DNA of 64,000 nt from Hydrurus foetidus (lineage: Eukaryota), in contig UYFQ01000852.1 in the NCBI GenBank assembly GCA_900617105.1, positions 124,001 to 188,000 on the forward strand, read 5' to 3'. A program made the translations under genes and the position numbers. The stretch's first letter is position 1. Each line of letters begins with the position of its first letter. The notes under the pieces are model-generated. The model was not told the DNA's origin and searched no databases. It saw only the letters and a list, made by a program, of their open reading frames with translations. This document shows positions 3,417-60,633 of this stretch, one piece after another.

Positions 3417-3488
3417 CGGGTGGACGGCCAGCTATGGCGCGGCTTGGCGCCGGCCTCCGCCATCACCGCCGATCATGGCGGAGTCTGG

Positions 3489-3897
3489 TCAGCGTCCTGA
3501 ACCGTCCGTCGTCTCCAGGTAAGCGATGATGTCGCGGCGTTGGTTCGCGTCCGGAACGGTCAGGTACATCCGCGAGCCGGGAGCCATGCGCTGCGGACCC
3601 TGGAGCCAGGCATCAAGCCTGTCAGACGTCCAGACGCCGCCGACCTGCCGCAGCGCCGGCGAGTAGTCATAGCCGTTCGCCGATGCCACGCGCCGGCCCA
3701 CGACACCCGATGTCTTGGGCCGGTGCGGTTGACGTCGAGCGAGTGGCAGGCGCCACAGCGGCCGTCGTAAAGCGCGCGTCCACGCGTGGCATCCCCGCCG
3801 CTTTGCGCGGGAGGCCGCCGGCGGGTGGATAATGCCATTCGCCAGGAGGAGATGACGGCGAAGACGAGGACCAACCCTCCCAGGTCAGGCGCTTCAC
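3489..3897 (-). CDS. Class I c-type cytochrome
   Basis: GDATRGRALYDGRCGACHSLDVNRTGP (CxxCH), then GYDYSPAL...WTSDRLDAWLQGPQRMAPGSRM. Confidence 0.9.
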
Positions 3898-3900
3898 GGT

Positions 3901-4453
3901 TCAGACGAACAGGAAGGCCTGGGCCGGAATCGCTGTCCCAGCCGCATTATTCAAGGTCGCCCAGTGAACGGCTTCGTCGGCGGAGAGCTGCGTGAACAGG
4001 TGCACCAGGCCCTTGTCGGACAGGGCGGCCACCTGCCCGGTGTAGGCGTTGGTCGCCCCCTGTTCGAGGCGCGTGGCGAGCGCCACGACCTCAGCTTCGG
4101 ACGTCAGGGTCGCGAGAGAGCGCTTCGACATAGTCCGCGTCCGATCTGGGTTCTACCGGCGTGCCGCCCGCCTCACGGACCACTCGAGCGAGCGCGTCAC
4201 GATGTTGCTGATGGTGTCCCATGAACAGTGTAGCGACCTGCAAGGTGCCAGCGGACAACAGCCCGCTCGCACCGGCAAGCCGATAGGCCGCGATCCCCTC
4301 GTGCTCGATGGCGAGGGCCGTTCAGAATGCCGACATCGCCGTCTCCGGTCTGCGCAACGGCGGCGCGGCGGATGCGAAGAGCCCTGCTCCCGCCAGGGAT
4401 CCCGCGGCGATGAACAGATCTCTACGGCCCGGTCGGGCTGGTTCTGTGGTCAC
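3901..4453 (-). CDS. Ferritin-like domain protein
   Basis: ALAIEHEGI...LATRLEQGATNAY...LSADEAVHW (ExxH di-iron helix pattern); GGAGG RBS before a GTG start. Confidence 0.7.
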
Positions 4454-4827
4454 CTGAACCTCCTTTGGACGAAGACCGCGTCCTCGCCGCTTCAGACGTC
4501 GACTTCACGGGCCGGCATCCAAAGCGTATCAGGCCGTCACCCGCGGCGACACGCTTCGGTGAGGCATTCCTTCTATGCCTGCCGGCTATCGGTTCACGGA
4601 CCCGTCCCTTCCGAAGCCCATCGCCGACCCACCGTGAGGCCGTGCGCAGTGAGCAGGCGAAGATCAAGTTCAAGCTCGGATTGATCGCTTCACGACGCAG
4701 ATCCAGGTCGGTGGCAATCCCCGCAACGCGAACGGTCTGCTACTTGTCGCCGCGTGGTTTCCCGTTCATCTGACGTGGGTCGCGGGACCGGGATCCACGA
4801 CGAGATCGTGGGAAGGGTGAGATCGCA

Positions 4828-5428
4828 ATGGGCGCTTCGCAGACGGATCCGTCGGCCTTTTACGGTGTTCTGGAGGAATGGATCACCGCGTCCGATGTCA
4901 TGGAGCGCACGCTCAAGCCGGGTGACCCGATGCCGGGCTTCATGGCGCCGATGATCGACGGTCGCCTGGTGTCGTCCCTGGAACTGCTCCGCAGCGGCCC
5001 GTTGGTCATCAGCTTCTTTCGCGCGCCTGGTGCACGTTTTGCGTCGAGGAGCTTCGAGCCCTCGACGCCGCCCTCCCCAGTTCGCCGCACGGTCAGTCGG
5101 CGTTGTCGCCATCTCTTCAGAGACATCCGAACCGGCGCGCCGCCTGCAGTCGGAACTCTCGATCCCCTTATTGTCGGATGTCGACTACGCGATCGGCCTG
5201 CTGTTCGGCGTCATCTTCGTGGTGCCGCCATTCATGCGCGCCCACCTCGAGGCCCGTGGGATCAATCTCGGCGAGCTTCACGGCTCCCGGACCTGGATGC
5301 TGCCGATCCCGGCGACCTATGTGATTGACCGGAATGGCGCTGTCGCCGCCGCCTTCGTGGACCCCGACTTCACCTGTCGAACCGATCCCGGAGATATCCT
5401 TGAGGTGATCGCCAGCCTTGAGGCCTGA
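4828..5428 (+). CDS. Peroxiredoxin-like AhpC/TSA family protein
   Basis: LKPGDPMPGF...LLRSGPLVISFFR..WC..C...VVAISSE...LLSDVDY...LPIPATYVIDRNG. Confidence 0.8.
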
Positions 5429-5487
5429 TCGGCCCCATTGCGGTTTCGCGGCATTGGCGTTCGTAAGCTTTTCAAAGGACTCTTCTC

Positions 5488-6872
5488 GTGTCGAAACCCA
5501 CAGCAGCCAGCGTCGCGCCGGAGCGGTTCGATGCCCTCATCATCGGCGCCGGGCAAGCAGGACCGTCGCTCGCGGGCGTCTCAGCGCCGGCGGGATGACG
5601 GTCGCGATCATCGAGCGCCATCTGGTCGGCGGGACTTGCGTCAACACGGGCTGCAAGCCGACCAAGACGCTCGTGGCCAGCGCCCAGGCCGTTCGAACCG
5701 CGCAGCGCGGCGCGGAGTACGGTTTCTCCACAGGCGAGGTGAGGGTCGACATGGCGGCCGTTGCGGCGCGCGCGAACAAGGTCATCCTCGACTCGCGGTC
5801 GGGTAACGAGGACTGGCTGACCGGCATGGCCAATGTCGATCTGATCCGCGGCCATGCGCGGTTCGAAAGCGCCGACACGGTCGTCGTCGAAGGTCGGCGG
5901 CTGACGGCGCCCGGATCTTCATCAACGTCGGCGGCCGGGCCAACGTCCCGAGATGCCCGGGCTGTACGACGTGCCCTGGATGACCAACACCGGGATCGTC
6001 GGCCTGGATATCCTGCCCGGCATCTGATCGTGGTGGGCGGCAGCTACATCGGGCTGGAGTTCGCCCAGATGTATCGCCGCTTCGGCGCGGAGGTGACGGT
6101 CGTCGAGCGGGGAGACCGATTGATCGGCCGCGAAGACCCGGATGTCCCAGGCCGTACGCGAGATTCTCGAGGCCGAAGGCGTCACGGTCCGGACCGGCGC
6201 GAACTGCATCGGGTTTGCGCCGACGCAAGAGGGGTGTCCGTCTCGGTGGATTGCGCCGAAGGGCCGCCCGCTTCGGTCGGCAGTCACGTCCTGCTGGCGA
6301 TCGGTCGGCGCCCAACACGGACGATCTGGGTCTGGACGCGGCCGCCATCGCGACGGACGCCCGGGGCTATATAACGGTGGATGATCAGCTGAGGACATCT
6401 GTCGAAGGCGTCTGGGCGCTGGGCGACTGCAATGGCCGCGGCGCTTCACCCACACCGCCTACAACGACTTCGAGATCGTGGCGGCCAACCTTCTTGATGG
6501 CGAGGATCGGCGCGTCAGTCAGAGACTGCCCGGTTACGCCCTCTATATCGATCCGCCGCTCGGCCGGGTCGGGATGACGGACGCCGAAGCGCTGAACAGC
6601 GGACGTCGCCTGCTGTTCTCAAACGGCCGATGACGCGCGTCGGGCGGGCGGTCGAGAAGGGCGAGACCCAGGGCTTCATGAAGGTGGTGGCTGACGCCGA
6701 CACGCGCCGGATCCTGGGCGCGGCTATTCTCGGCGTCGGCGGCGACGAGGCGATCCACGGCATTCTCGACATGATGTCGGCCGACCAGACGATCGAAGCG
6801 CTTCGCTGGGCCGTGCCGATCCACCCCACAGTCGCGGAAGTCATCCCGACCCTGCTGGCGGAGCTGGCCTAG
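5488..6872 (+). CDS. Class I pyridine nucleotide-disulfide oxidoreductase (RclA/MerA-like, no C-terminal Cys pair)
   Basis: FDALIIGAGQAG, GGTCVNTGCKPTK, VVGGSYIGLEFAQ, WALGDCNG, C-terminal IHPTVAE. Confidence 0.85.
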
Positions 6873-6980
6873 GACGCGAGCGTGACCCCGCATTGACGTC
6901 CGCTTCGACCGTCATCGACTTCCATTGATGATGTTTGACGCCCCCGAAGGCCGAGAGCCTTCGATTTCGGAGGAGACACC

Positions 6981-7355
6981 ATGAGCGACGACAGAATGAA
7001 GATCCCCGGTTCCGATCATCCGATCACGCTGGTGCGTGAGATGTCGCGTGCCGTCATCCGGGCGGCGGGTCGCCAGATCGGAGAGACCGGCGACGTGTTG
7101 ACGCTGCACGAGTCCGCCTACGCCCCCGTCCACTACGTTCCGCGTGGGGACCTGGACATGAACCTTTACCCGAACCGCCACCAGGACGTTCTGCCCTACA
7201 AGGGCGAGGCGAGTTACTTCTCACTGGCGGTGGGAGATGACGTCCATCCGGATGCGGCCTGGTCCTACGAGACGCCCTATCCCGCCGTCGCCCCTATCGC
7301 GTACTATATCGCCTTCTTCCCGGGCCACACCGAGCTCATTTTCCGGGAGCGCTGA
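6981..7355 (+). CDS. DUF427 domain protein
   Basis: LTLHESAYAPVHYVPRGD...PYKGEASYFSL...DAAWSYETPYPAVAPI. Confidence 0.85.
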   Translation: MSDDRMKIPGSDHPITLVREMSRAVIRAAGRQIGETGDVLTLHESAYAPVHYVPRGDLDMNLYPNRHQDVLPYKGEASYFSLAVGDDVHPDAAWSYETPYPAVAPIAYYIAFFPGHTELIFRER

Positions 7356-7573
7356 TCGGGTCCGCCTGCATCTTTTCAGGCGTTCGAGCGCGGTGTCTGA
7401 CGGGTCGAAGGCTGAGGGAGCCAACCCTGCATCTACGCTACAAGGCCTCGAACTCGCAAGCCCTGACGCGCCAATGTCTGCTTCCCGGTTGAGAGAAGTC
7501 GCAGCGCGACGCAGCAGCCTGCGACCAGCCTCGCCCGTCGATGACGTCCTGGTCATTTTGCCGAGCTTGCAGA

Positions 7574-8160
7574 TTAACCGCGAACCACCTGTTCAAGACC
7601 AGCCCCGGCGAGCCGGGCGGCGGCGAGCAGGCGATCGAGATCGTGCCCGTTGCGAGCGCTGGCGGACAGGCCGGCCATGACGGTGCTCATATAGTCGGTC
7701 ACGCGCTCGGCCTGGTCGGATGGCGCGCGGCGACGAAGCGATGGATCGCCCCTCCGCCGCCGCAAGGAAGGTTCCGGCCGCCTGCGTGCCTCGCGGTCGG
7801 TGCAGCGCACCCTCGATAACGAGGCACCCCGCCGCGTCCGGATCGGCGGCATAGCGCCGCGCCGCCGCTTCCAGCACCGCGACGAGGCATTCCGCGACCG
7901 GGCGATCGGCGTTCAGCAGATCGGACAGCGGGACCGCGCCGGTACCGGCATAGCGATCGAGAATGCGGCTGTAGAGCTCGGCCTTGCTACCGAAGGCGGC
8001 GTAGAAGCTGGGCGGGTTTATCCCGATCGCCTGGGTCAGGTGCGCGATGCTGACGGCATCATAGCCACGCGAATGGAACAGATGTTGGTGGTCGCGACCG
8101 CTTCGTCCGGGTCGAACAGGCGCGGTCTGCCGCGTGCGCGGTTTAGTTTGTATGAGCCAC
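7574..8160 (-). CDS. bdcR: TetR family regulator, BdcR-like
   Basis: RGRPRLFDPDEAV...LFHSRGYDAVSIAHLTQAIGI..PSFYAAFGSKAELY...AARRYAADPDAAGCLVIEG; divergent from bdcA; start approximate. Confidence 0.7.
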
Positions 8161-8232
8161 TACAAATACCTTGACGGATGTCTAGAACTGTTTATGTAGC
8201 GGGTCGTAAGTTATTCATCAAGGAAAAGTCCG

Positions 8233-8938
8233 ATGGGTGTGTTTGAGGCGAAATCCGTTCTCGTGCTGGGTGGCAGTCGGGGATCGGCGCGGCGATCGTT
8301 CGGCGTTTTGTGGCCGATGGCGCGAACGTGACCTTTACCTATTCCGGCTCGCCTGACGCGGCGCACGCGCTGGCGGCCGAAACGGGCAGTACCGCTGTCG
8401 AGACGGACAGCGCGGATCGCGACGCGGTGATCGCGCGTGTGAAGGACAGTGGCCCGCCTGACGTGCTGGTCGTCAATGCCGGAATCGGTGTTTTCGGCGA
8501 TCTGCTGGAGCAGGATCCGACGCAATCGACCGGCTGTTCCGATCAATATCCACGCGCCCTATCATGCGTCGGTCGAGGCCGCGCGCCAGATGCCCGAGGG
8601 CGGCCGGATCATCGTCATCGGATCGGTGAACGGCGACCGGATGCCCGTTCCCGGCATGGCCTCCTACGCGCTCAGCAAGTCTGCGCTGCAAGGGATGGCG
8701 CGCGGCTCGCACGTGACTTCGGGTCCCGTGGCATCACGATCAACGTGGTGCAGCCCGGCCCGATCGACACCGACGCCAATCCGGCGGACGGACCGATGAA
8801 GGAGCTGTTGCACGGCTTCATGGCGATCAAGCGCCACGGCCGGCCGGAAGAAGTCGCGGGCATGGTGGCGTGGCTCGCCGGCCCGGAGGCGGGTTCGTTA
8901 CGGGCATGCACACCATCGACGGCGCGTTCGGTGCCTGA
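8233..8938 (+). CDS. bdcA: SDR oxidoreductase, BdcA-like biofilm dispersal protein
   Basis: Stitched protein (VLVLGGSRGIGAAIVRRFVADGANV...INIHAPYHASVEAARQMPEGGRI...TIDGAFGA) closely follows E. coli BdcA as I recall it. Confidence 0.85.
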
Positions 8939-8957
8939 TCCGGCGGCGCAAACGCCG

Positions 8958-9604
8958 ATGACCACCATCGGCATCATCGGCGCGGGCGAGGTCGGTAGAC
9001 AGATTGCCCGCGCCGCCATCGCCAACGGCTATCGGGTGGTCATCGCCAACTCGCGCGGGCCCGAGACCCTGGCCGGGCTGGTCGCGGAGCTCGGGCCGTT
9101 CGCCGCGACCGCTGCCGGTGCGGCGGAAGCGGGAGAGTTCGTCGTGATCGCGGCCCCGCCTGCTGGTCAACGACATGCCCGTGGCGCAACTGGCGAACAA
9201 GATCGTGCTCGACACCAACAACTATATGCCGTGGCGCGACGGGCGCTATGCCCTCGTCGATACCGGCGCGAAGACCGAGCACGAACTGCGGCAGGACCAG
9301 CTGCCAACGTCCAAGGTCGCGAAGGCGTTCACGCATATCCAGGCGCCGCGCCTGTTGCTGTCGGCGCGGCCCGCTGGCACGCCGGGGCGGCACGCGCTGT
9401 CGGTGTCGAGCGACTATCCCGAAGCGGTGGCGCTGGTCACGCGACTGTACGACCAGTTCGGCTTCGACACGGCGGACAACAGCCCGCTTAGCGAAAGTCT
9501 TGGCGTAGCGGTCCGGGTCAGCCGGCATGGCACGCGCACGAGCATCAAACGCTTCCCGAGCTGGTTGCTAACCTTGCCAAGGCGACACCGCCCCACCGAG
9601 ATAG
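8958..9604 (+). CDS. F420-oxidoreductase-family NAD(P)-binding protein
   Basis: MTTIGIIGAGEVG...VVIANSRGPETL...KIVLDTNNYMPWRDG...SKVAKAFTHI. Confidence 0.85.
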
Positions 9605-9821
9605 GGCAGGCGGCCCTGTCTGACTACAGCGCCCTTCGCCTACGAAGTTCGCCGTTCTCGCCCTCGCCGGGCATCACGTTCATGTCGGCCTGAGCCTGCC
9701 GCGGTCAGTATCGCCGAGCGACCAGCAGCGATCCGCGATCACGCCGACAAGGCCTACGGTGTTCGACTGAAAACCGGGGTCTGTGTGAAGAGCGGAATCT
9801 CGCCTTTCAACCAAGTCGGTA

Positions 9822-9849
9822 ATGACCGCTGCTGGCGCTTGTCGGACCT
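9822..9849 (+). repeat. 28-bp 11-6-11 junction motif
   Basis: ATGACCGCTGC-TGGCGC-TTGTCGGACCT. Confidence 0.6.
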
Positions 9850-9925
9850 CGCCGCTACCGCCGTTTTGACTCTAGCGGCGGTTTGGAATGTCTGCTTAGC
9901 GGCGGCGGGCGACAACCTGCTAAGA

Positions 9926-10335
9926 TCAACCGACCTCGGTTTCAATCGAGACGGCCCCAACGAGCATGCGGTGGATCGGGCATCGGTCGGCGATTTCAAG
10001 AAGTCGGTCGCGCTGCTCCTGTGGGAGGTCTGCCGGCAGGCTGATGGTCCGCACGAAGTGGTCGGAGGGCGTCGCTTCCGGCTGTCGGAGAACAACCTCG
10101 ACGGACAGTAGGGGCCTATCGCCCAGCCATGCGGTTCGCGTAGAGGCGCAGGGTCTGGGCGGTGCAGGAGGCCAGAGCGGCCTGCACCAGTTCATGCGGG
10201 GTCGGCCGAGATCCAGCCCACCCAGTTCGACAGGCTCATCGACGACGAAGCTGGCAGGCCGGCGCGGACCACGAGTTGCGAGCCGCCGTGGCCCGCATCG
10301 TCGGCGAAGGAAGATCGGGGTGTGGAAGCCGTCAT
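9926..10335 (-). CDS. OsmC family protein
   Basis: FVVDEPVELGGLDLG..PHELV..ALASCTAQTLRLYA...RLLEIADRCPIHRML (two catalytic Cys). Confidence 0.85.
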
Positions 10336-10391
10336 GGGGCTTCGCTGAATGAGTAGGGGTTGTTCGGTGATTGTCGCGCGATCGACGCGCC

Positions 10392-11353
<962 letters not shown>

Positions 11354-11362
11354 TGTGGACCC

Positions 11363-11965
11363 TCAGGGCTTGGAAGATTGGGAAAGAGCTGTGTCGATAG
11401 CGATGACCACGCTGCCGAGAGTCAGCGGGCCATCCACCCGGCGGCCCTGAACGAATAGAGTCGGCGTGCCGGTGACGCCCGCATCCTGCGCCTGGCGAAC
11501 ACGCCGTTCCAACGCGGCCATGGCGTCAGGGTCGGCGATGCAGGCTTCAGTCGGGCCTCGTCGATCCCGAAACGACCCGCGACCCCGAGATGAGCCTGCG
11601 GGTCTGTCCACCGGTCCATTCCAGACTGGCCGGGGCGTCAATCACCTCGAAATACCGCTGAGACCCCGCACAGCGCGCCAGAAACGCCGGCGGCGGAAAG
11701 ATCGCAGGGCGGTAATGAACTCCCGATAGATCAGCTTGACCTGGCCGGTATCCATATAGCGACGGCGCAGTTCGGGCAGCACCGATCGCGAACCGGGCGC
11801 AGGGGCGCAGGTGCTCGAAGCGTATTCGATCAGGGTTACCGGGGCCTGACGGCCCAGAACCATGTCATCGGCTTCCGCCGCTTGGGGCGCGCATGCCGTG
11901 ATCAGGGCGCCGGCTCCCACAGCGATGATCGAGCGACGAGTGGGAAGAAGGATATCGGATTCGCG
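11363..11965 (-). CDS. DsbA/thioredoxin-fold lipoprotein
   Basis: ALITACAPQ lipobox; DMVLG..APVTLIEYASSTC...YMDTGQVKLIYREF...GVTGTPTLFVQG; start approximate. Confidence 0.8.
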
Positions 11966-11999
11966 AGCCTCCGGGCAAAGAACTGACGAGCGACCCAGC

Positions 12000-13143
12000 G
12001 CGCGCGCAGGAATGTCGCGCTTGGCCGCGTCCGTAAGGCAGGGGCGACGAACAGGTCTCCGCGCCAAGCGCCGCGGATCGTGCGGGCCGACGATGAGCCA
12101 GAGGATTGCAAGGCCGGCGATCAGGGCCACGCCGAAGATGTTGAAGGCTGGGATCGGCAGCAAGGTCCTTCAGGGTCGCGACCGAGAAGACGCCGATCGG
12201 GAAGGTGTAGCCCCACCAGCCGAGGTTGAAGGGGCAGGCCCCTGACGAAGGTAACGCAGAGTGATCAATGCAGCCATGGCTGCCCACCAAAAGGCCAGGC
12301 CCACAGCAAAGGCCGCCGATCAGTCCGATGCCTCCCGCCGCGTCACCGTATTGACCCAGCCCGGGCGGTGAAGATCGGCCTGACCCAGCACCAGCATCCC
12401 CAGAGCGCCGGTCCCGATCGGACCCAGCGACAGCCAGCTGGACGCCGCCATGCCGGCGTGCGGCAGTTTGTGGATCGCCATGCGCAGAACCAGGATGACG
12501 AGGATGCTTAGCGCCAGAGGCACCGACAGCGCCTAAAGAGAGTAGCTGACCACCAGCACGGATAAGGCCGCGTTCGGGTCGGTCAGGTGCGATCAGCCGC
12601 CGGTGACGGCCGCGGCCTCGACTACGGCGCAACAGCCAGACCGCCGTCATCTGGTCGATGGAATGCTCCTGGCGTGTGAACATCATGAAGGGGATGCCGA
12701 CGCCGCAGGCGACCGCCATCGCCACGTCGATCCACCACAGTGTCTCGGCGAGAGGGACGATGCCGTCGCCCCACCGCGCCAGGCCGAAGGCCATCAGGCC
12801 GCTGATGATCGTCGCCAGTCCCATCGGTGCAGCCGAAGAACATCGAGACGACCGAATGGCCGAAGAGCGGCGCGCCGTCGAAGAAGAAGATCCACCGCGC
12901 GGCGTAGAGGACGGTGAACAGGGCGAAGAGGCCGATGTTGAAAACCCACAGACCTTCGGCGACCAGCTTCACGCCAGGGATGTCGATCGGAATCTGGTTC
13001 AGGGCGATGGCCAGGATGCCTGTGCCCATGGTGGCGGCGAACCAGTTCGGGGTGAACTGGCGAACGACCTCGCTGGGCCGCTGGAGTTTGGCCAGAGGCC
13101 GCAGGCCGAAGGCGACGTCGCGAAGGTGAAGGTCATGCGCCAT
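12000..13143 (-). CDS. TDT (tellurite/dicarboxylate/sulfite, SLAC1-like) family transporter
   Basis: VRQFTPNWFAATMGTGIL...SSWLSLGPIGTGALG...FNLGWWGYTFPIGVF; about 10 hydrophobic segments. Confidence 0.9.
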
Positions 13144-13173
13144 CTGAAGTGTCCTGAACAATGCTGAATGAAA

Positions 13174-13706
13174 CTAGGGCGTTGAGGCGACAGATCACGC
13201 CCAGCACGACGGCCGTCACGACCAGAAGAGCCGACAGGGTAAGGATTTGAAGTGTGGCCTCGCGTCCCGTGATCCAGCCGGTGTAGGTCACGACGCGACC
13301 ATTCAGGAACTGGCTGAAGCTGCGTACACCATTACCCGCGTCTGGCGTATCCGACACCAGGGTGCCACCGGTCAGCAGGCCGAAATACATCGCACCGAGC
13401 AGGCTGATAAAGCCGAGTGCGAGGTCACCCCGCCCGAAAGTGATCCAGAACACCAGGACCATGCTGGCATAAAGGCCGGCGACGGCCTTGATAATGATCG
13501 GGTGGATACCGGTCTGACCGACATCAAGCTGGATGCGGTGAAGCGTCTTGCCGTCGCCGACATCGGGGATGTGGGCCGTCTCGATTCGACGGCGGTCACC
13601 ATAGTGGGCGGTAGAGGTTTTACCGGCACCCGCAGGTCACGAACGCTCGACGGGGTTGTGGCTGGACGATGCGTGCCGGTGTATCGAACGTGCAGGCGGG
13701 GGTCAT
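13174..13706 (-). CDS. Hypothetical membrane protein
   Basis: GGAG RBS before ATG; C-terminal hydrophobic helices (MVLVFWITFG...TYTGWITGREATLQIL). Confidence 0.55.
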
Positions 13707-13786
13707 GATCGGTCTCCTTTAATGGAGTGGAGGCCGACAGTCGGCGCGCTCCTCGACGCCGATATTGATCGCGAGGATCTGTTCCA

Positions 13787-13827
13787 TCCAACGCAATGAT
13801 GCGAACTATTTAAATCGATTGAGGTGA
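13787..13827 (-). promoter_or_regulatory. Putative LysR box plus -35-like element, copy 1
   Basis: Minus strand TCA-cctcaat-CGA-N7-AGTTCG-N10-TTGGA. Confidence 0.55.
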
Positions 13828-13839
13828 ATGAAATGCTGA

Positions 13840-14326
13840 TCAGCCCGTCGCGCCGTCGCCTCGTTCACAGCCAGTCCCGCAGCAGCGCCCGCAGGTGTCG
13901 CCTGGCTCGGCATGGCCCTGAGATAATCGACGATGGCGTCGATGTCGCCGACCGCGATCGGGGCCATAGGTTTCCCGCATCTTGACGACGGTAGAATGCC
14001 ATCACCAGTCAGCCGGGCTGGGTCAGCCATGCTAGCCGAATGACAGGATATGCAGTTGGCATTGACGACATCGGCCAGGCCAGCCGTCGGGGAATGACGA
14101 GGCCTCGTCCGGCAGTTCGATACTGGCCGAGGTCAGGGTGAAGCCGCTTGCCGACACGAACGACGGCGGCGGCGCGACCGGGGCCGCAGGGACCACAGGA
14201 GATACGACCATCTTCCGTCCCTGGGCTCATTGCCGCCCGCGATGGCTCCGATCAGGATCACGCTCGTAAGCCCGCCGGCCAGCAGGATCGACATCCCGGT
14301 CGACAACGGTGTTCTGACTTGCTCAT
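13840..14326 (-). CDS. SorB-like monoheme cytochrome c
   Basis: Stitched ...SIELPDEASSFPDG...VVNANCISCHSASM..QP...VVKMRETYG.PIAVGDIDAIVDYL; start overlaps the sorA stop. Confidence 0.75.
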
Positions 14327-15539
14327 CCGAAAGTCACCGTGGTGGTCTCGACACATCCACGCATGAAGCCGCCCGGATTCCAGTTCGGCGTCATCGGCTG
14401 AACGACGCCCGCAGTGCTGGTGCAGCGCGTCATTAGGAATGGCCCCTCGGCCACGGATCGGCACCACCGTCGAAGCGTCGAAAACTGTAGGGGCCCTGGT
14501 CCGGTCCCAGCTGCGCGGGTCGCCAGGTTCGCCCGCCGTCGGACGACAGGTCCACCCTCGACACTCCGGTGTCCCCGCCCATGGCGATGCCGCCGATCGG
14601 CAGGGTGGGCTGCCAGGCCACGGGTGATCGCCCGCGATGCTCGGGATCCACGACCGAGGGACCATCCGGTTGATCGGCACGGTGGGATAGTCCTTGTCGG
14701 TCGGGGAGACATTGGCCATCGGGGTGTCGAATCTTGTAGGCCTTTGCCATCCAGTACCCGTCGTCGGGTTTGTCCAGCACCTCGATATCGTTCAACATCT
14801 TGACCCAGTAGGTCGAGAACCAGCCCGGCACGATCAACCTGACGGGAAATCCATTCAGCAGAGGCAGTTGTTCGCCGTTCATGGCGAAGGCCACCATCAC
14901 CTCGCCGTCGCGCGCATGATCCAGGGCCAGCGACTTTGAGAAGTCCGCGCACCCGCCACGACGGGCTGGTCCAGCGCGCCGAAGCGGACGGCCAGGGCTC
15001 CGGTCTGACCCTGCGACATCCAGAAGGTGCCTCAGACTGACGCCCATCCACATGGCATTGCCCATCGCCCCATGCGCCCATTGCGCGCCCGGCACGCGGG
15101 GCTGGAACAGGCCGCGCGAGTTTCCGGAACACTGGTTCACCGCTGCCATCTGCACGCGCGGCATGGCCAGAAGCTCGGTCAGCGACACCGACAACGGGCG
15201 CACCACATGGCCGTGCACATTGATCCGGAAGGTCGTGGCATCGACCGAGGTCGGGATATCGGCCCAGTGCCAGCGCACGAAGAACTGGTCGTTGGTGTGA
15301 AGACGCCTGGTCGAACACCGACATCGGCGTCTCAAGCAGCGGCGGTCGGCTGCGTTGCAGGATCATCGATCCCTTGCCCGGAAAGCTGGAGGTCAGTGGG
15401 CGCGACGAGGGTCCACCTGGTAGAGCCAGGTCCACCGCCTGTTGCCCCAGGCGGGGCCGACCAGGCTGCCGCCGCACACCCCTCCAATAACGAAGCGGCG
15501 TCCAACGGCGTGAGATATGGGGTCGTTGGCTGAAGCCAT
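14323..15539 (-). CDS. sorA: Molybdopterin sulfite oxidase-family enzyme (SorA-like sulfite dehydrogenase), Tat-exported
   Basis: GRRFVIGG Tat motif; RPPLLETP, FFVRWH, VNQCSGNSR (Mo-ligand Cys), GAMGNA, LNGFPVRLIVPGWFSTYWVK. Confidence 0.85.
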
Positions 15540-15934
15540 GTCGATATCCTTAACCGTCGCACACATCAGGCGATGTTTCAGCTCTATTGGCAAGCGGGTT
15601 GTCCTGAGGATCGCAGTTCCGGGTGCCAGTCTCCTGGTGTTGATCTCCGCCCAATGCACGGCTGTCGGAGATCACGCGCCGTGCGGTTCGGATTTTCCGG
15701 CGAGCCCGAAGGGACCTGAACGGGTCCAGGTCCAGGCTTCTCCAAAAGGATCAGAGCCTCCGTCCTTCCCCATCGTTCAGAGGATTGAAACGGCGTTGCT
15801 GCATACGCGGTTTTGACCGCGCGGACCAATGCAACTCCCTCCTGAACAGCGGCGAACGGATGTCAGAAGCAGGCCGGCGCGATTGACCTGACGGCCAGAT
15901 CCGAAAGAGAACCTGGGCCGCCGCGACCATATTA

Positions 15935-16361
15935 TCAGTGGGCATGAGGCGGATTGACCTGCCAGATTTCATCAACCAGCAGACCCGCCCGATACAAGAG
16001 GACATAGCGGACCGGGATCGCTTGCTTGCCCTCGAAGGTCACATCGACGGTGACGGTCGCGCCGGCCGGGTTTCGGCGATCGTCATGGCGGCGATGTTGG
16101 CGCTGAGCGGACCCAGGCCGGCGAATCGTGACCAGACGTCGCGCAGTTCGACCGGGTCGTCATAATGCCCGTCTAGCGGTCCGCCGACCCACTGCAAGTC
16201 GGCGTCTGGTGCATAGGCCGACAGAACCGTATTGACCGACCCTGCGGCGATCGCTGCGATCCGGGTTCGGGCCAGAGCCTCGTGGGACTGGGCGAAGGCG
16301 GGAGCCCCGTCATCAGCACGGCTGACGTCAGGACGAAGGCCGAAAGAGCATGAAGTCGCAT
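15935..16361 (-). CDS. Secreted SnoaL/NTF2-like protein
   Basis: Signal peptide, then ARTRIAAIAAG...YAPDADLQWVGGPLDGHY...WSRF...VRYVLLYR...EIWQV. Confidence 0.7.
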
Positions 16362-16429
16362 CGCGATATCCTTGAAAGATCAATCCGGGCTGGATCGTTG
16401 CTCATCTTCAAGGATCGACGCCCAGAAGG

Positions 16430-16469
16430 TCCAATGCGATGTATCGAACTGATCATTCGGTTGAACCGA
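16430..16469 (-). promoter_or_regulatory. Putative LysR box plus -35-like element, copy 2
   Basis: Minus strand TCG-gttcaac-CGA-N6-AGTTCG-N10-TTGGA. Confidence 0.55.
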
Positions 16470-16508
16470 TCATCCGAGCAGATGTCCGTCTTCGTTGATG
16501 GTTTTCCG

Positions 16509-17385
16509 TCAAGCCATCGGAGACCTTGACGCAAGCAGGCTGACAAATGCGTCCCCAGCCTTTGACCGATATCGCTGTTTGTGACGCAGCAGCCAGAACG
16601 GTCGGGCCGGAAGGTCGAATGGCAGGGTCGTAAGGATACCGGCCTTCAGACGCGCGGCGACGACGTTTCGCGAGACGACGCGGCCCCAGCCCCGCCTCGA
16701 CCGCACCCGCCACCGCCTCATTGCCCGGCAGGCTCATCGCCACATCCAGATCGTTGACGCTCAGACTGTGTGCCGCCAGCGCGGCCTCGAAGGCTGAGCG
16801 CGTGCCGGAGCCGGGCTCGCGCAAGACCCAGGTCATGGCCTTCAGGTCCGGTCGGGCCGCCCGTCCTGGGCCTGCGGATGTCCTGCAGCGACGACCAGCA
16901 CCACCTGTCGTGATCCAGCACCGTGCGGCTGAGGACGGCTCGTCCACCGCCCTCGACCAGACCCGCGGCCTCGCCCTCGATCACAGCTCGGGCCACGTCT
17001 CGGGTGTTGCCGATGGTGACATCGATCTGGATGCCAGCGTGGCAGGCATGAAACGCCGCCAGACGAGACGGTAGCCACCATCCTGCGATCGTCTGGCTGG
17101 CTTGGATCGACAACCTGCCGCGCTTCAGGTCACCGAGGTCATTGAGTGCCTCCTGTGCCGCCGCCGCGCGAGGACGGCGCGGGCCTCGATCAGGAACACC
17201 TGTCCAGCCGCATTCAGCACGATGCTTCGCCCCACACGATCGAACAGCGCAACACCGTGACGTGCCTCCAGCGTGGTGACCGCAGAACTGACGGCAGACT
17301 GGGTCAGGTTCAGGGCCTCGGCAGCACGTGTGACGTGCTCACGCTCGGCGACGGCGACGAAGATGCGGAGTTGATCCAGGGTCAT
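16509..17385 (-). CDS. LysR family regulator (CysL-like)
   Basis: MTLDQLRIFVAVAEREHVTRAAEALNLTQSAVS...ASQTIAGWWLP...WVLREPGSGTR. Confidence 0.9.
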
Positions 17386-17427
17386 GGGCGCAACCTAGCC
17401 GCTCGCGCCGGAAAACAGATGGATCGT

Positions 17428-17467
17428 TCGGCGGTCGCGAACGTTCTCAGCAACAATCTCCGTTGGA
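17428..17467 (+). promoter_or_regulatory. Putative LysR box plus -35-like element, copy 3
   Basis: CGTTCG-gcggtcg-CGAACG palindrome followed 22 nt after CGA by TTGGA. Confidence 0.6.
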
Positions 17468-17513
17468 TGGTCGATTGTCCAACCGTCAGGATGGCGATGA
17501 ACCGAAAGTCCCG

Positions 17514-17904
17514 ATGATGACCTCCTCCTTGAAACTGACCGGCCTGTTGGCTGTCGCCGCCCTCTTTGGCGCAGGACTTATGGCCTTCGCCCAGACGCCA
17601 CGCTCCCCTTCGATACGGAAATGGCCGAGGCCATGTCGCGCATGCACACCGCCATGACGATCGCGCCGACCGGCGATCCTGACCGCGACTTCGCCGCCAT
17701 GATGATCCCTCACCATCAGGGCGCGGTCGACATGGCGCGGATCGAACTCGCCTACGGCAAGGACGAGCCGATGCGCCGTCTGGCCCAGGGGATCATCGTC
17801 GAACAGACCCAGGAGATCGCCTTGATGCAAGCCTTCCGACCGCTCGGCCACCCGCCCGACGTCCAACGCGCCCGCCGCACCTCATACCGGACACTGACCC
17901 ATGA
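17514..17904 (+). CDS. DUF305 (CopM-like) Met/His-rich secreted protein
   Basis: MAEAMSRMHTAM...GDPDRDFAAMMIPHHQGAVDMA...IIVEQTQEIALM. Confidence 0.85.
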
Positions 17905-19336
17905 CTTTCGTTTCGAAGACGCCCTTCGTCCTGGCGCTTGCCCTGATGGCATCCCCGGTCTTGGCCGATCAGGTTCCCGGCGCGGCGGCGGCGCCGCCAT
18001 CCCGATCAGCGGCCAGGATCGGTTCTATTCGGCCGACCAGTTCTCCAACACCGTCTCGGTGGTCGATCCTCGACCAACAGCCTTCTGGGCGTGATCTCCT
18101 CGGCGAGCCGACCCCGGCCAACCTCAGCCCGCTCTACAGGGGTCAGCTGCTGGTCCACGGCATCGGCGCGGCGCCGGACGGCAAGACGATCGCCGTGGTC
18201 TCGATCGGGTCGAACTCGGTCAGCTTCATCGACACGGCCACCAACGTCGTCAAACACACCACCTATGTCGGACGCTCTCCGCACGAGGCCTTCTTCACGC
18301 CTGACGGCAAAGAGGTCTGGGTCACGGTGCGGGGCGAGGCCTATATTTCGGTGCTGGACGCCGCGACCTATCAGGAAACCGCCCGGGTCGAGACGCCCAA
18401 CGGGCCAGGCATGACCATCTTCTCGCCGGACGGCCGTTACGCCTACATCTGCTCCAGCTTCAGCCCCGAGACAGTCGTGGTCGAGACCGCGACCCGTCAG
18501 ATCGTCGGTCGGGTGGCCCAGGCCAGTCCGTTCTGCCCAGACATCGCCGCCACGCCCGATGGGAACCAGGTCTGGATGACGCTGAAGGACGTGGGCAAGA
18601 CGATGGTGTTCGACGCCCGTCCGCCGTTCGCCGTGCTTCAGACGCTCGACACCGGCCCGCTGACCAATCACGTCAACATCGTGCGAAATCGGGATGGTCA
18701 GTTCGCCTATGTCACGGTGGGGACCGAGAACGTTGTCAAGGTTTTCCGCACCGACACCTTCGACCCCGTGACCGCGATCGCGGTGGGGTCCCTGCCGCAC
18801 GGTCTGTGGCCCTCCGGCGACGGTTCGCGGATCTACGTCGGACTGGAGAATGGCGACGGCGTGGCGGTCATCGACACCCTGGCCAATCGCGTGATCGCCA
18901 CCGTGCCGGTAGGTCAGGGACCGCAGGGCGTCACCTATGTGCCGCGTGCGGTCACCGAGGGTGACGGCAGGGCCAACCTCATGCCCCTGGGCACCGCTCG
19001 CGCCTCGCATCAACTCGTTCTGACAGGCGAGGACGACGCCCGGTCGCAGGCGACCCTGTTCGAGCAGGGCAGGTGCAGATGCTGCAGATCGCCGCCGCAG
19101 GCCTCGAACCCGGCAAGCCCTATGTCCTCGCCTTCGCCGAGACGGCGGACGGATCGGGGACGCTGCAGCCTCTGGCGAAGTTTATGACCAATCCGGCCGG
19201 GTCCGCGGTCGTCAATGCCGTGGGCCCGATCCGTCAGGTGGTCGCCGCCGACGCCGGCGCACCCCGCCGTTGGCTGGTCATCGCCTCGGGAACGCCTGAG
19301 GCGATCGGCCCGGTCGTCCAGAGACAGTCGGAATAG
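17901..19336 (+). CDS. YVTN/YncE-type beta-propeller secreted protein
   Basis: Signal peptide; repeated blades (SNSVSFID, VGRSPHEAFFTPDGKEVWV, VGSLPHGLWPSGDGSRIYV). Confidence 0.85.
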
Positions 19337-19347
19337 GACCGGCCGCC

Positions 19348-20011
19348 ATGCGTATCGACAAGTTCGTGCATAGCTGCCTGCGCCTGACGATCGGCCAGGA
19401 GCGACTGCTCTTCGATCCGGGCAAGTTCTCGTTCGTCGACGGACGGGTCGATCCCGCTGTCTTTCGGACGTCTCGACGATCGTCCTGACGCACGGCCATC
19501 CGGATCACATCGACCCTGATGCGTTGGGCAGGATCGTGCATGCGAGTGGCGCAACGCTCGTCGGCAACGGCGAGGTCGCCAACAAGCTCAGCGAGAAGGG
19601 CCTGTCGGTCACGGTCTTCGAAGAGGGTGAACGGATCTTCGGCGCGTTCCGACTGCAGGCTCAGGCGGTCGCGCATGAGCCCATCCTGTCGGACGAGAGC
19701 ACGCAACTGACCGCCTTCCTTGTCAACGACGTTTTCTCAACCCGGGCGACAGTTTCGACAGCCGTCTGGATCGATCGTCGGCGTGGAGGTGCTGGCCCTT
19801 CCGGTGATGGCCCTTTCTGACCGAGCTCACCGCCCATGCCTTCGCCAAGCGGATGAAGCCGAAATCTGTCGTGCCGGTCCATGACGGCTACGCGCGCGAC
19901 TATTTCCTCAAGCAGCGTTACGACGTCTACGAGCCCTATCTGGACAAAGTCGGGATTAAGCTGCACCGGCCGATGACGCCCGGAGACGGGTTTGAGGTCG
20001 CCGACCAATGA
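19348..20011 (+). CDS. MBL-fold metallo-hydrolase
   Basis: MRIDKFVHSCLRL...LLFDPG...IVLTHGHPDHID...PGDSF...VVPVHDGY. Confidence 0.85.
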
Positions 20012-20108
20012 CGATTGACGCAGCCTGAGTCTCCATCGGCTTCGCCTGACCACGCAGATTTATCTTGGTCAGTTGCACATGGGATGTCGCCTTCCTGGCG
20101 CGAGTTCA

Positions 20109-20136
20109 ACTTCCGCTTCTGGCGCTTGGCCGAACT
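20109..20136 (+). repeat. 28-bp 11-6-11 junction motif
   Basis: ACTTCCGCTTC-TGGCGC-TTGGCCGAACT. Confidence 0.6.
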
Positions 20137-20164
20137 TGCAAGCTCGCCAACCGCCAGTCACTCT

Positions 20165-20989
20165 TCAGAGCATGGCGAGCCGCGTCTTGCGGGTTGGAGC
20201 CGGAAAACCAGCGTCGATGGCGGCGAGATCGTCCCGCGTCAGCGCCAAGTCCAGGGCGCGGCAGTTGTCCGCGACGTGCGCCGCATCGCCAGCCTTGGGA
20301 TGGCGATGACCCGCGGATCGCGTAGGACCCAGGCTAGGGCGACCTGGTACGGCGTCGCGCCGTGGCGCCTGGCGACAGCCGATAGGGCAGGGGACGCCGG
20401 CAGCGCGCCTGGCCGATCGGGCTGTAGGCCATGACCGGTATCAGGTGTCGGTTCAGCAGCGGAAAGAGGTCGAACTCCGCGCCGCGCTCGGTCACATTGT
20501 AGAGGATCTGGTCGGTCGCGCAGGCCTGTCCGCCGGCCCGAAACAGCTGTTCCATGTCCGCGTGATCGAAGTTGCTCACCCCCATCGCCGGATCTTTCCG
20601 GCTTGGACGAGGGCGTTCATGCCCTCGATGGTTTCGGCGAGCGGCACGGAGCCGCGCCAGTGCAGCAGATAGAGGTCGAGCCGGTCTGTCTTCAGGCGTT
20701 TCAGACTGGCTTCGCACGCCTTCTCAAGGCGACCCTCCCGGCGTTCTGCGGATAGACCTTGCTGATCAGGAAGACCTGATCGCGAACCCCGGCCAAGGCT
20801 TCACCGACCAAGTCTTCAGTCGCGCCGTCGCCGTACATCTCGGCGGTGTCGATCAAGGTCATGCCGAGGTCGACGCCAGCGTGAAGGGCGGCGATCTCCT
20901 GTTCGCGTCGGCGCGGGTTCGCCCATCCGCCAGGTCCCCTGTCCGAGGGCGGAGACTTCGGCGTGGTCGGGAAGCGTCACGGTTCGCAT
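20165..20989 (-). CDS. Aldo/keto reductase
   Basis: [57 protein letters not shown]. Confidence 0.9.
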
Positions 20990-21155
20990 TTCGGTCTCCT
21001 GGCCTCGGACGTCTTTGAAGCGAACGCCCGGGACCGTGTTTCGCCTCCGGCTAATCGTGTCCGGCGTCGAGTCATCCATGACGAAGGCCCGGAATATCCC
21101 CGTCCCATGCAACCGAACGGGCTGGGCGGGACTAACAGAAGGTCAGGATTTTCGC

Positions 21156-24369: not shown

Positions 24370-24467
24370 TCGTCCCCACTGTGCGACGCAGACGCTGTGT
24401 AGTTCAGGCGCAGCCAATACTGCGGTGGAGCGTTTGCATGTCGCCCTGGACTCGAAAGGAGACCGTG

Positions 24468-24798
24468 ATGGCCAATGCTGAATCCCGCTCACCCGTGAAT
24501 AAGGCCCTGTTCGTGCGACTGCGCGCAAAGCCCGGCAAGGAGGCTGATGTCGAGGCCTTCCTGCGCGACGGACTGGCTGCCGTGATGGAGGAGCCGGACA
24601 CGACGACATGGTATGCGCTCCGCTTCGGTCACGACGACTTCGCCATCTTCGACACCTTCCGGGAGACGCGGGAGGCTGGCTCATCTGGCAGGAAAGGTTG
24701 GCCGTGCACTCGTCGCCAAGACACCGGAACTGCTCGACGGCCTCCCGAAGATCGAAGACGCACAGGTTCTGGCGTACGCTTACCGACCAAAGCGGTGA
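24468..24798 (+). CDS. Antibiotic biosynthesis monooxygenase (ABM) family protein
   Basis: ALFVRLRAKPGKEADVEAFL...EEPDTTTWYALRF...FAIFDTF...AHLAGKV. Confidence 0.85.
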
Positions 24799-25131: not shown

Positions 25132-25136
25132 CAAGC

Positions 25137-25641: not shown

Positions 25642-25643
25642 TG

Positions 25644-57653: not shown

Positions 57654-57691
57654 GATCTGCGCCTTGAAGGGGATGTGAAGGGGTAGCGAAA

Positions 57692-57721: not shown

Positions 57722-57731
57722 GCCTTCACGA

Positions 57732-59237: not shown

Positions 59238-59322
59238 CGGGCATTCCTCGCGTTAAATTGCGGGCCGCCACGCGTCGAACGACACAGTACCAGCAACCCC
59301 GACGGCGGCTTTAAGGCCCTTT

Positions 59323-59412
59323 GCGATGGGTCGGTGACAGAAAATCGACGGAATATTACAAATCATCCTGGCCGGATGGAAAGAAACAAGATCAGTCACA
59401 CAGTTGTCGCGA
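59323..59412. promoter_or_regulatory. Pho-box-like 11-bp-periodic repeats
   Basis: Minus strand TGTAAT/CGTCGA/TGTCAC/CATCGC at 10-11-11 spacing; plus strand GTCAC (59395) and GTCGC (59406) 11 bp apart. Confidence 0.6.
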
Positions 59413-59439
59413 CAAGGTCTCAAACAACGCGGAACCCGT

Positions 59440-60316
59440 GGCGCCGCAGACGGATTGAGCGCCGGGACCTGCCGGTGTGCTCTGGCGGTCGCAGGAGCGC
59501 GCTCAAACGCCGAGCGTCGTCCCACGACCGTCACATCGGCACGCCCTGCCCCGCGTCCGCTGCAGGCGTGGTCGACCTGATCGACATCGCCGACCGTGAC
59601 GGCCGTGACGGTCAGAAAGTGGTCCGACGTAAAGCCCAGGCCCGTTGACGAGACCCGACCCCGGCCAGATCGGCGGGCGTCAGATAACCGACGCGGTCGC
59701 GCTGCTGGATCAGGGTGCGTGCAGCCGCGGGATCGCGCAGCACCAGGGCCAGCAGGGATTCGCTGACGGTGTTCAGGTTCAGCTGCGCCGCGGTGGCAGG
59801 ATCGTGATGAAGGCCAGCAGGGCGATCTCGTCCGGCGTGACCCCGCCGCCACCAGCAGGCGGTTGTCCGACAGCGGCCCGGCGATGCGAACCACCGTCGC
59901 AATCCGGATCAGGGTCTCGGGCGCGACGCCGACGGCCTCGCCGATCCGCTGGAAGAGGCCGATGGCCGCCGGATCCGCATTGACCAGACCATTCAGGTTG
60001 AAGCGGGCCTGCTCGTCTTCGATGTCCAGTGCGAAGCGGCCGCCGGGGACCGCGACCGGCGTCTGGCCCAGGGCCGCCCAGGGTTCGGCGAGATTGTCCG
60101 TACCCGCCCGACGATGCCGTCGCGGCGCAGGCTCGTCACGGCCGACAGTTCGCCGGCCCGCGCATAGGCGGCCTGCGCCACGTCGCGCAGCCGGGCGCTG
60201 CGCTGGATTTCGATGTCCTGACCGGCCACCATGATGAGCACCGTGACACTGGCCATGGCGACGACCAGCAGCACGTTCAGCAGGATCATGCCTTCGCGGT
60301 CGGGGCGGCGGGCCAT
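59440..60316 (-). CDS. gspK: Type II secretion minor pseudopilin GspK
   Basis: REG/MILLNVLLVVAM prepilin site, YARAGE, DNLAEPWA, IEDEQARFNLN, LNLNT; 3' end approximate. Confidence 0.85.
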
Positions 60317-60420
60317 CGGGACTATCTCCTGATCTGGCCGACTAGACCCGTCACCTTCCGGCGGCAAGCCGTCTTTGGCCTTGAGCGCCTGCCGCAATCC
60401 GCTAGGTTGCGCGGGCTTCC

Positions 60421-60492
60421 GCGGGCGTGATGTAGTGGTAGCCTGAAAGCTTCCCAAGCTTTTCGTGCGGGTTCGATTCCGCCGCCCGCTCA
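60421..60492 (+). tRNA. tRNA-Gly(CCC)
   Basis: GCGGGCG acceptor, AAAGC-TTCCCAA-GCTTT anticodon arm, GGTTCGATTCC T arm, CGCCCGC-T-CA end. Confidence 0.93.
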
Positions 60493-60589
60493 AAAACAAT
60501 GACTTAGAAGCCAGCTTGATCCGGATGCGGATCATATTTTGCTTTTGCTTTCGTTTTGCAAAATGACGGAGGAGCAGGCGTGCTGGCGG

Positions 60590-60633
60590 ATGTCCGCTTC
60601 TGGCTCATAGCGGCGTTTCGCAATGTCCGCTTG
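60590..60633 (+). repeat. 28-bp 11-6-11 junction motif plus an extra left arm
   Basis: ATGTCCGCTTC-TGGCTC-ATAGCGGCGTT (60590-60617), then ATGTCCGCTTG at 60623. Confidence 0.65.

Follow-up and report, generated by a model that had tools for sequence, protein, structure and literature searches.

The stretch of DNA analysed here, hereafter the window, comprises 64,000 nt of contig UYFQ01000852.1 (assembly GCA_900617105.1, positions 124,001 to 188,000), with a G+C content of 67%. It carries three gene blocks, designated A, B and C, and related 28-bp sites, laid out as two 11-bp arms around a 6-bp spacer, which lie at block boundaries and behind a tRNA-Gly gene (Table 1). Among the genomes compared, the nearest relatives of the window were Caulobacteraceae of the Brevundimonas group. 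Its thioredoxin gene showed 75% identity to a Caulobacteraceae metagenome-assembled genome (MAG) and 70% to a MAG of Brevundimonas vancanneytii, and the best DNA identity of the YidC-EngB-CobT stretch in 401 family genomes was 79%. Many genes of the window are broken across reading frames. Contigs of four public sequencing runs, aligned on positions 9000-27500, all shared letters that are absent from the window, and a 7065-base contig of run X1 (an air metagenome), spanning 20096-27064, differed from it by 17 substitutions and 100 gaps. Since the four runs agree on the missing letters and the X1 contig shows these gaps, the window is real sequence with about 1.4% insertion/deletion errors, as established for 9000-27500. 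A search of the window against Rfam returned tRNAs only.

The four co-oriented sites of the window

An earlier examination of the letters alone (the original prediction) had quoted eleven copies of the 28-bp motif, all in one orientation, and had taken them for recombinase sites through which gene cassettes are stacked. We confirmed all eleven strings at their coordinates. For a specificity check of the kind suggested in that prediction, a 28-mer weight matrix was trained on 14 sites from other genomes; its independence is partial, as some training-site arms are orthologous to window arms. At a threshold of 10 bits, the matrix returned exactly four hits in the window, those at 9822 (site A), 20109 (site B), 25068 (site C) and 60590, every one on the + strand, in line with the predicted co-orientation. 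The check came out in favour of the four, which scored at least 23.6 bits, as compared with 8.5 bits for the best non-site position of the window, maxima of 6.5-11.3 bits in ten block shuffles, and a maximum of 18.9 bits in control DNA from 99 loci (1.335 Mb) picked irrespective of the motif. Sites found later in genomes G677, G682, G681, G738 and G690, and further sites in G240, scored 21.9-40.9 bits. The other seven quoted copies failed by the matrix: 25104 scored 3.6 bits, and 3424, 6896, 7474, 9888, 25044 and 60623 all scored below 3 bits as 28-mers. No site was detected by the scan between 25.1 and 60.59 kb, which agrees with the claim that the core at 25.2-60.4 kb holds none.

Similarity among the window 28-mers is, by itself, not beyond chance. 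The window contains 934 distinct quartets of same-strand 28-mers with a pairwise identity of at least 18/28, and 27 of them reach the summed identity (117) of the quartet originally proposed. The left-arm 9-mer ATGTCCGCT, with at most one mismatch, was found 21 times as compared with 17.1 expected, showing no enrichment in the window, and a post-hoc 17-mer consensus gave 4 window hits against 0.56 expected. The sites were judged to be real because of the comparison with other genomes and the gap in matrix scores, not because of window-only statistics. Written as a consensus, their arms are ATGTCCGCTNN and WTNTCRGACMT.

The inverted-repeat character of the 11-bp arms is weak. In the 11-6-11 register, complementarity in the five main copies was just 5-6 of 11 positions, and at least 6/11 is reached at 6.2% of all window positions. 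When the same five 28-mers were folded and compared with shuffles, 25104 alone did better, the other four giving z values from -0.98 to +0.43. The 25104 hairpin is conserved where homologues of block C begin in G280 and G374.

All four sites follow a co-oriented gene or tRNA whose end is 98-130 nt away. Sites A, B and C each point towards the 3' end of a convergent gene, and a hairpin begins 9-16 nt past the site. The proposed association with tRNA genes holds for the fourth site, 99 nt after tRNA-Gly, and for a site in G690 that lies 16 nt from tRNA-Leu. Overall, the four sites are genuine, low in number and share one orientation, and sites A, B and C coincide exactly with module boundaries.

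Module reuse and the position of the breakpoints

Window positions 9638-26713 were searched against 401 family genomes, of which 141 matched at E ≤1e-50, and the flanks of the matches were then fetched. The G355 locus was searched against 151 genus genomes, which gave five further cases (G738, G677, G682, G681 and G690). Block A was 97% identical to G347:C2:971405-981873 over window 9826-20125, the match beginning within site A and ending with the final letter of the site B spacer, TGGCGC. In G347, this block sits between trbB and trbC/trbE, beside traG, and is thus inside a conjugative (type IV secretion) gene cluster. The match of G300 to block A (89%) stops at 20126, where a contig of run X3 terminates as well. 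In run X1, contigs break at both block A sites, and the block (9617-20105) showed a contig depth of ~71 as compared with ~34 for the next blocks, about twice that of blocks B and C and of the left flank, which suggests a second copy or another carrier in that sample.

Block B recurs in at least six other contexts (G355, G682, G681, G677, G240, G223 and X17). G355 matches window 20113-23743 and 24365-25084 at 88-89% identity; this match starts in site B and ends where the TGGCGC spacer of site C does. In G677, a block with 99.6% identity to that of G355 likewise ends at TGGCGC. The whole of block B is present in G682 (92% identity to the window), flanked by two sites, and G681 is 97.7% identical to window 20974-25091. 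In run X17, an isolate, block B corresponds to 20121-25086 and is preceded by a foreign left arm (…AATGTCCGTTCA) and followed by unrelated sequence. Block B has a sub-boundary near 20974-20981, and the G677 and G681 contigs both end at the equivalent of 20974. The aldo/keto reductase gene occurs without the rest of the block in G690 and G765; in G690 it stands alone between two sites, one of them that beside tRNA-Leu. Block C is followed in G280 and G374 by a site, TGTCCGCAGT-TGGCGC-AGAGCCGC(T/C)AT, a counterpart of which was not seen by eye in window 26591-26730. Parts of block B were also found, in a plasmid collection, on Sphingomonas, Azospirillum and Sphingobium replicons. On the Sphingomonas replicon examined, the block B genes are differently arranged and no junction site flanks the match; the same record contains a 21.8-bit hit 2.5 kb left of the match, with a related palindrome nearby.

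G240 contains eleven sites of at least 15 bits within 32 kb, in two oppositely oriented arrays (five on the - strand, six on the +), which bound units of 0.6-5.2 kb; those of the plus array measure 0.6-3.3 kb and mostly hold one called open reading frame (ORF). Within each array, the sites of at least 23 bits are on one strand, and weaker units of the other subtypes lie opposite at three junctions. One single-gene unit between two G240 sites (L179 1217-4192; G240:C8:83216-86191) encodes a 991-aa TrlF-family AAA-like ATPase (NCBIfam, 686 bits), which also matched, more weakly, families of anti-phage ATPases.

In nearly every junction compared, homology stops at the edges of the TGGCGC spacer, as seen in G347, G300, G355, G738, G677, G681, G682 and runs X3 and X17. 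The left arms go with the upstream block and the right arms with the downstream block. Two further claims, that the sites stand at module junctions and that crossover takes place at the 6-bp spacer, are thus upheld across several genomes and runs. At the right end of block A, ACTTCCGCTTC-TGGCGC is common to the window, G347 and G300, and is followed by the unrelated right arms TTGGCCGAACT, ATTTCAGACCC and TCTGAGGGCCG. At the left end of block B, TGGCGC-TTGGCCGAACT stands behind four left arms, namely ACTTCCGCTTC in the window, ATGACCGCTCC in G355, ATGACCGCTGT in G682 and ATGTCCGTTCA in X17, and at its right end six right arms follow ATGTCCGCT(C/T)A-TGGCGC (window, G355, G682, G681, G677 and X17). 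Homology at site C ends at 25084 in G355 and X15, at 25086 in X17, and at 25093 in G682. G738 and G355 are 99.98% identical over 4.2 kb through ATGACCGCTCC-TGGCGC, and are wholly unrelated thereafter. Since the two variable bases preceding the spacer always follow the left partner, exchange should lie to their right, within or at the edges of TGGCGC. These alignments support the mapping of the exchange point to the 6-bp spacer, even though the arms pair so poorly. In the 60590 region, 39 of the 151 genus genomes matched window 58500-64000, with no match right of ~60315.

Related units accompany the sites. The second-subtype unit at 9855..9883 aligns with 60590-60617, and its composite with a half-site is also found in G275, G001 and G002 (L117, L130, L138); in G335, a second-subtype composite lies left of a block A homologue (L150:5692, 18.7 bits). 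The copies quoted at 9888 and 60623 are parts of this conserved composite, in which a TGACTC/TGGCTC unit with right arm TAGCGGCGGTT is followed by GG-AATGTCYGCTT. The half-site AATGTCYGCTT is carried at 7474, 9888 and 60623; five relatives contain 42 copies of it, about one-third of them coding NVRF codons, as compared with 2 copies of the reversed control. A third spacer type, CGACCC, was found in G240, G300 and G355, and it is common for a Brevundimonas junction to contain two or three units, the spacer types being TGGCGC, TGACTC and CGACCC. Farther afield, perfect palindromes of the form TGTCCGCTT-N4-10-AAGCGGACA were present in 4 of 251 sampled alphaproteobacterial genomes (28, 7, 2 and 1 copies; reversed control, 0), one palindrome carrying a TGGCGC spacer, and a Sphingomonas plasmid has the palindrome GTGTCCGCTTT-CCGCTC-AAAGCAGACAT. 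From this wider family, the junction sites of Brevundimonas may have branched off as a specialised form. G626 and G454 (L157, L160, L161) contain tandem clusters of near-perfect 26-27-nt palindromes, TGTCCGCTT…AAGCGGACA, spaced ~45 nt, of which we found no description.

Table 1. Sites, related units, gene blocks and other features of the window
Feature	Position	Strand	Description
Site A	9822..9849	+	ATGACCGCTGC-TGGCGC-TTGTCGGACCT; 33.1 bits; left boundary of block A
Block A	9839..20125		10.3 kb; Ldh-like, DsbA-like thioredoxin, SLAC1/TDT transporter, SorA-like molybdopterin oxidoreductase; also LysR, DUF305, beta-propeller, metallo-beta-lactamase fold
Second-subtype unit	9855..9883	+	Spacer TGACTC, right arm TAGCGGCGGTT; hairpin with 9-bp stem; in left end of block A
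Half-site	9887..9897	+	AATGTCTGCTT; after second-subtype unit; not a full site by matrix
Site B	20109..20136	+	ACTTCCGCTTC-TGGCGC-TTGGCCGAACT; 31.3 bits; junction of blocks A and B
Block B	20126..25084		5.0 kb; aldo/keto reductase (-), then UvrA-like ATPase, TMEM175-family channel, ABM monooxygenase (+)
Site C	25068..25095	+	ATGTCCGCTCA-TGGCGC-ATCTCAGACAT; 39.3 bits; right boundary of block B
Hairpin, not a site	25104..25131		Directly 3' of - strand LigT-like gene; fold z -1.96
Block C	25114..26608	-	2'-5' RNA ligase-like and histone-deacetylase-like; 82-83% identity to G280 and G374
Tandem repeat	41726-41809		9-nt unit (CGACCCGTT), ~8 copies, within apparent coding sequence
tRNA-Gly(CCC)	60421-60491		
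Fourth site	60590..60617	+	Spacer TGGCTC, right arm ATAGCGGCGTT; 23.6 bits; 99 nt after tRNA-Gly(CCC)
Half-site	60622..60632	+	AATGTCCGCTT; starts 33 nt after start of 60590 site

Proposed site-directed exchange and its alternatives

Spacer-edge breakpoints, module reuse in many contexts, co-oriented sites and a window that contains no recombinase gene are direct observations. Because homology breaks at the spacer edges, the arms segregate and the modules recur elsewhere, we prefer the hypothesis, to which we assign a probability of roughly 0.6, that a conservative, site-directed recombination uses the sites as its core sites and thereby moves recombinase-free modules among the chromosomal islands and the conjugative elements of Brevundimonas-like Caulobacteraceae. 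Each site would consist of an 11-bp left arm, TGGCGC and an 11-bp right arm, with strand exchange within or at the edges of the spacer. A module would accordingly begin, on the left, with a right arm and end, on the right, with a left arm plus spacer, and co-oriented hybrid sites would separate modules that are stacked. A dedicated recombinase would act in trans, most likely of the tyrosine type in view of the 6-bp exchange region, and the modules may pass through circular intermediates. As far as comparison of sequences can tell, the cassette reading of the original prediction appears substantially right, and its interpretation is partly supported. Site-bounded modules of this type may represent a new kind of gene-cassette system; a literature search by sequence strings and topics found the sites nowhere described as module boundaries. 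If the hypothesis is correct, the 28-bp site would be a precise marker of module boundaries in Brevundimonas and relatives, and the enzyme moving this recombinase-free cargo would become testable through the predicted circle and empty-site junctions.

Several observations weigh against this hypothesis. First, the arms are poor inverted repeats. The homology of G347 at site A starts at 9826, and the first ~27 bases after the site A spacer are ~30% diverged between the window and G347, 97% identity being reached from TTTTGACTC. In X17, left-flank homology extends to 9850, 12 nt beyond the spacer. Not all synteny breakpoints, which had been expected at the sites, coincide with them. Relative to G002, the breaks at 9637/9638 (185 nt left of site A) and 26713/26714 miss the sites. 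Here, window 1..9637 is 97% identical to G002 (the B. vancanneytii MAG; G002:C1:100536-110311), whereas the rest of the window shows only 70-82% identity, and in G002 the homologue of 1-9637 is separated by 530 unrelated bases from that of window 26714. Either this accessory segment has been shared recently or the assembly contains a chimeric join. Synteny with G275, G280 and G001 is confined to 27.45-38.0 kb, with no site at either end; it begins at tRNA-Arg (27471-27547), which is typical of an island boundary. A zinc-ribbon thioredoxin gene (26702-27040) adjoining this tRNA is conserved beside the island in G002 too. Among the joints listed for the aligned contigs (15 of 32), there was no circle or empty-site joint; an X15 joint of 20890 to 20113 (side 32) was too weak to use. 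Moreover, exchange anywhere in CCGCT..TGGCGC looks identical, and therefore the enzyme class cannot be read from these data.

The search for the enzyme adds to these points, as no enzyme was found, nor could the sites be linked to any recombinase family. The recombinase had been predicted to be encoded elsewhere. Its absence from the window was confirmed, in that the 150 longest open frames of the window matched no integrase, resolvase or transposase family, and neither did 126 frames around the window sites or 80 around sites of relatives (~20 sites); a family linked to the sites outside the window did not emerge. Two tyrosine recombinase genes that overlap (368 and 725 aa) lie 0.3 kb from the end of the G240 plus array, and are followed by a P4-like integrase. 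Both recombinases are only distantly Xer-like (38 and 29 bits, as compared with cut-offs near 335). In G240 and G355, palindromic units are found 0.1-0.3 kb from this trio, which in G355 is 8 kb away from block B. The 368-aa protein was the sole trio member searched; it has homologues in 1 of 5 further genomes that carry sites and in 6 of the 191 genus genomes examined, and no sites lay beside the other homologues. The trio was thus rejected as the general enzyme, being too rare in the genus as judged by this member, and the 368-aa recombinase is a weak candidate at best. The integron integrase model TIGR02249 reached its cut-off in none of five site-bearing genomes, and the Y1 transposase PF01797 exceeded its cut-off in two of the five, on other contigs. 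G240 and G300 each contain a single palindrome of the form ATAA-N6-TTATG, a candidate dif site, which does not resemble the junction sites.

DriD is a WYL-domain activator of an SOS-independent damage response in Caulobacter crescentus (PMC9186387, PMC13004042). The minimal DriD site of the didA promoter is ATACGTCCGTTTCTGGCGCA (PMC9186387), the consensus is ATACGAC-N7-GTCGTAT, and promoter sequences of didA, bapE and driD are quoted, the latter two carrying ATGTTCTCTTCTGGCGCA and ATACGACCGTTTCTGTCGCA (PMC13004042). The junction left arm plus spacer (e.g. AATGTCCGCTTCTGGCGCA) agreed with the quoted didA operator at 16/20 positions in the best sites of relatives and at 14/20 in site C. Over the first 17 matrix positions, the didA operator scored 22.7 bits, within the range of the window sites (21.5-26.1 bits). 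Over the right arm, it scored -8.3 bits and the three published operators scored -5.2 to -8.3, as compared with +2.1 to +13.2 for the window sites. By eye, DriD-like palindromes (e.g. TACGTCCGATTTTGACGCAT) were found just upstream of a GAAC-N7-GAAC LexA box in the recA promoters of all five relatives (L168-L172), ~150-200 nt upstream of the recA match and ~130-160 nt upstream of the likely start codon; the same arrangement of palindrome and LexA box has been published for Caulobacter recA. Because of these palindromes, the DriD system is probably present in the genus. Judged by their letters, the junction sites are DriD-operator-like on the left, carry an extra conserved arm on the right, and are in most cases badly placed as promoters. 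The original prediction had named a match to a known transcription-factor site as a point that would count against it. Such a match exists for the left arm plus spacer, and it leaves the breakpoints unexplained; the crossover reading is not refuted by it but is joined by a second one.

One possible explanation, then, is that the sites are DriD damage-inducible promoter elements, and that the junctions arise by short-homology or illegitimate joining in the longest conserved words of accessory intergenic DNA, with no dedicated recombinase. The operator-like score of the left arm and spacer and the palindromes of the five recA promoters favour this, as do the left-arm variants ATGTC, ACTTC and ATGAC, each one change from the ACG(A/T)C half-site at the same N7 spacing, and the small number of DriD sites per genome, which matches the low copy number here. 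However, the right arm is conserved in the junction sites and not in the three quoted operators, and three of the four window sites face convergent 3' ends, no co-oriented gene being placed to be driven. The frame downstream of the 60590 site has no assigned family, and sites A-C do not lie over the -35 of a promoter for the downstream gene. Furthermore, the complete site is regenerated without insertions or deletions at every junction, in at least 10 independent contexts, unlike the usual outcome of microhomology joining, and the words in common, at 6-13 bp, are very short to be used repeatedly by chance. We regard this explanation as possible but unlikely.

DriD binding to the left arm plus spacer, and hence a link to DNA damage, is nonetheless plausible from the operator match. 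In a combined hypothesis, a DriD-like winged helix-turn-helix-WYL protein activated by single-stranded DNA would bind the left arm plus spacer and license or help module exchange by a recombinase of an unrecognised family. We consider this version rather doubtful; if it were true, module shuffling in Caulobacteraceae would be switched on by DNA damage. The overlap with the operator suggests a testable tie of DNA damage to genome plasticity, and it also bears on the origin of the DriD regulon in Caulobacter. A literature search found no paper tying DriD sites to mobile modules, the supplementary operator alignments of both DriD papers lying outside that search.

A further alternative is that the sites resemble repetitive extragenic palindromes or bacterial interspersed mosaic elements (REP/BIME), which are spread or cut by an HUH enzyme of the REP-associated tyrosine transposase (RAYT) type or are prone to hairpin breakage, and that they mark rearrangement hot spots. 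The perfect palindromes of 4/251 alphaproteobacterial genomes, with their tandem clusters and one TGGCGC spacer, the similar palindrome on the Sphingomonas plasmid, and the Brevundimonas junctions with two or three units would fit such a view. On the other hand, a 15-mer with at most 2 mismatches occurred at control level in 4/4 Caulobacteraceae genomes, the core pattern was at or below its reversed control in 401 genomes, and the perfect palindrome was absent from 4/4 relatives. In view of these control-level counts, the sites are not a high-copy repeat, and a high-copy palindromic repeat was rejected as their identity. In addition, Y1 transposases were found in just two of the five site-bearing genomes and on other contigs, the junction sites fold no better than shuffles, and a RAYT cuts beside the hairpin and is not known to cut in its loop. 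This alternative appears quite improbable.

Chance resemblance, with coincidental junction positions, could appeal to the 27 of 934 quartets that are at least as similar and to the lack of enrichment of short left-arm words, and is practically negligible in view of matrix scores of 23.6-39.3 bits, as compared with at most 8.5 elsewhere in the window and at most 18.9 in the control, and of spacer-edge breakpoints in seven genomes and runs X3 and X17. An adapter or primer artefact was dropped because the sites recur in independent assemblies.

Comparison with known systems

The junction sites share with the DriD operator the N7 spacing, a right half GGCGCA(T) as in didA, and a low number of copies per genome. 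They differ from it in the extra conserved right arm, in mostly not lying upstream of a co-oriented gene, and in coinciding with recombination breakpoints.

Like integron cassettes, the modules are arrayed in one orientation, with a short conserved core at the boundary of each unit (9822, 20109 and 25068 in the window; the plus array in G240), and the G240 plus array ends beside tyrosine recombinase genes. In contrast to integrons, there is no IntI-type integrase in the five genomes or in the frames of the window, and many modules are multi-gene, with their own regulators and genes in both orientations. The original prediction had stated that the sites match neither dif nor the attC core, and this proved correct: by eye, the attC cores RYYYAAC/GTTRRRY occur in none of the 14 matrix sites or the four window sites.

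The cis-mobilizable elements (CIMEs) found beside integrative and conjugative elements (ICEs), and composite staphylococcal cassette chromosome (SCC) arrays, arise by tandem accretion of elements flanked by att sites. The arrangement described here is similar in that one att-like core is found as a direct repeat at every junction, with arms that segregate with the modules; integrase-free modules stand beside others, a gene or tRNA immediately before the arrays may serve as their anchor, and one module, block A, lies within a conjugative gene cluster (G347). It differs in that the window has no integrase-bearing member, no site forms the 3' end of a tRNA or conserved gene or overlaps a tRNA, and module size varies between one gene and 10 kb.

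The pdif modules of Acinetobacter plasmids likewise have a 28-bp 11-6-11 site and recombinase-free cargo, and one module is found in many contexts, with an enzyme supplied in trans, as would be the case here. A literature search on pdif modules in Alphaproteobacteria returned nothing relevant. The junction arms do not resemble dif-type arms (…ATAA / TTAT…). Moreover, pdif sites alternate in orientation, whereas all window sites are co-oriented, and the setting here is one of chromosomal islands and a conjugative element of Caulobacteraceae. If the hypothesis of site-directed exchange is correct, environmental alphaproteobacteria would possess a module-exchange system parallel to integron cassettes and pdif modules, with a site of its own, multi-gene cargo, and a link between chromosomes and conjugative elements.

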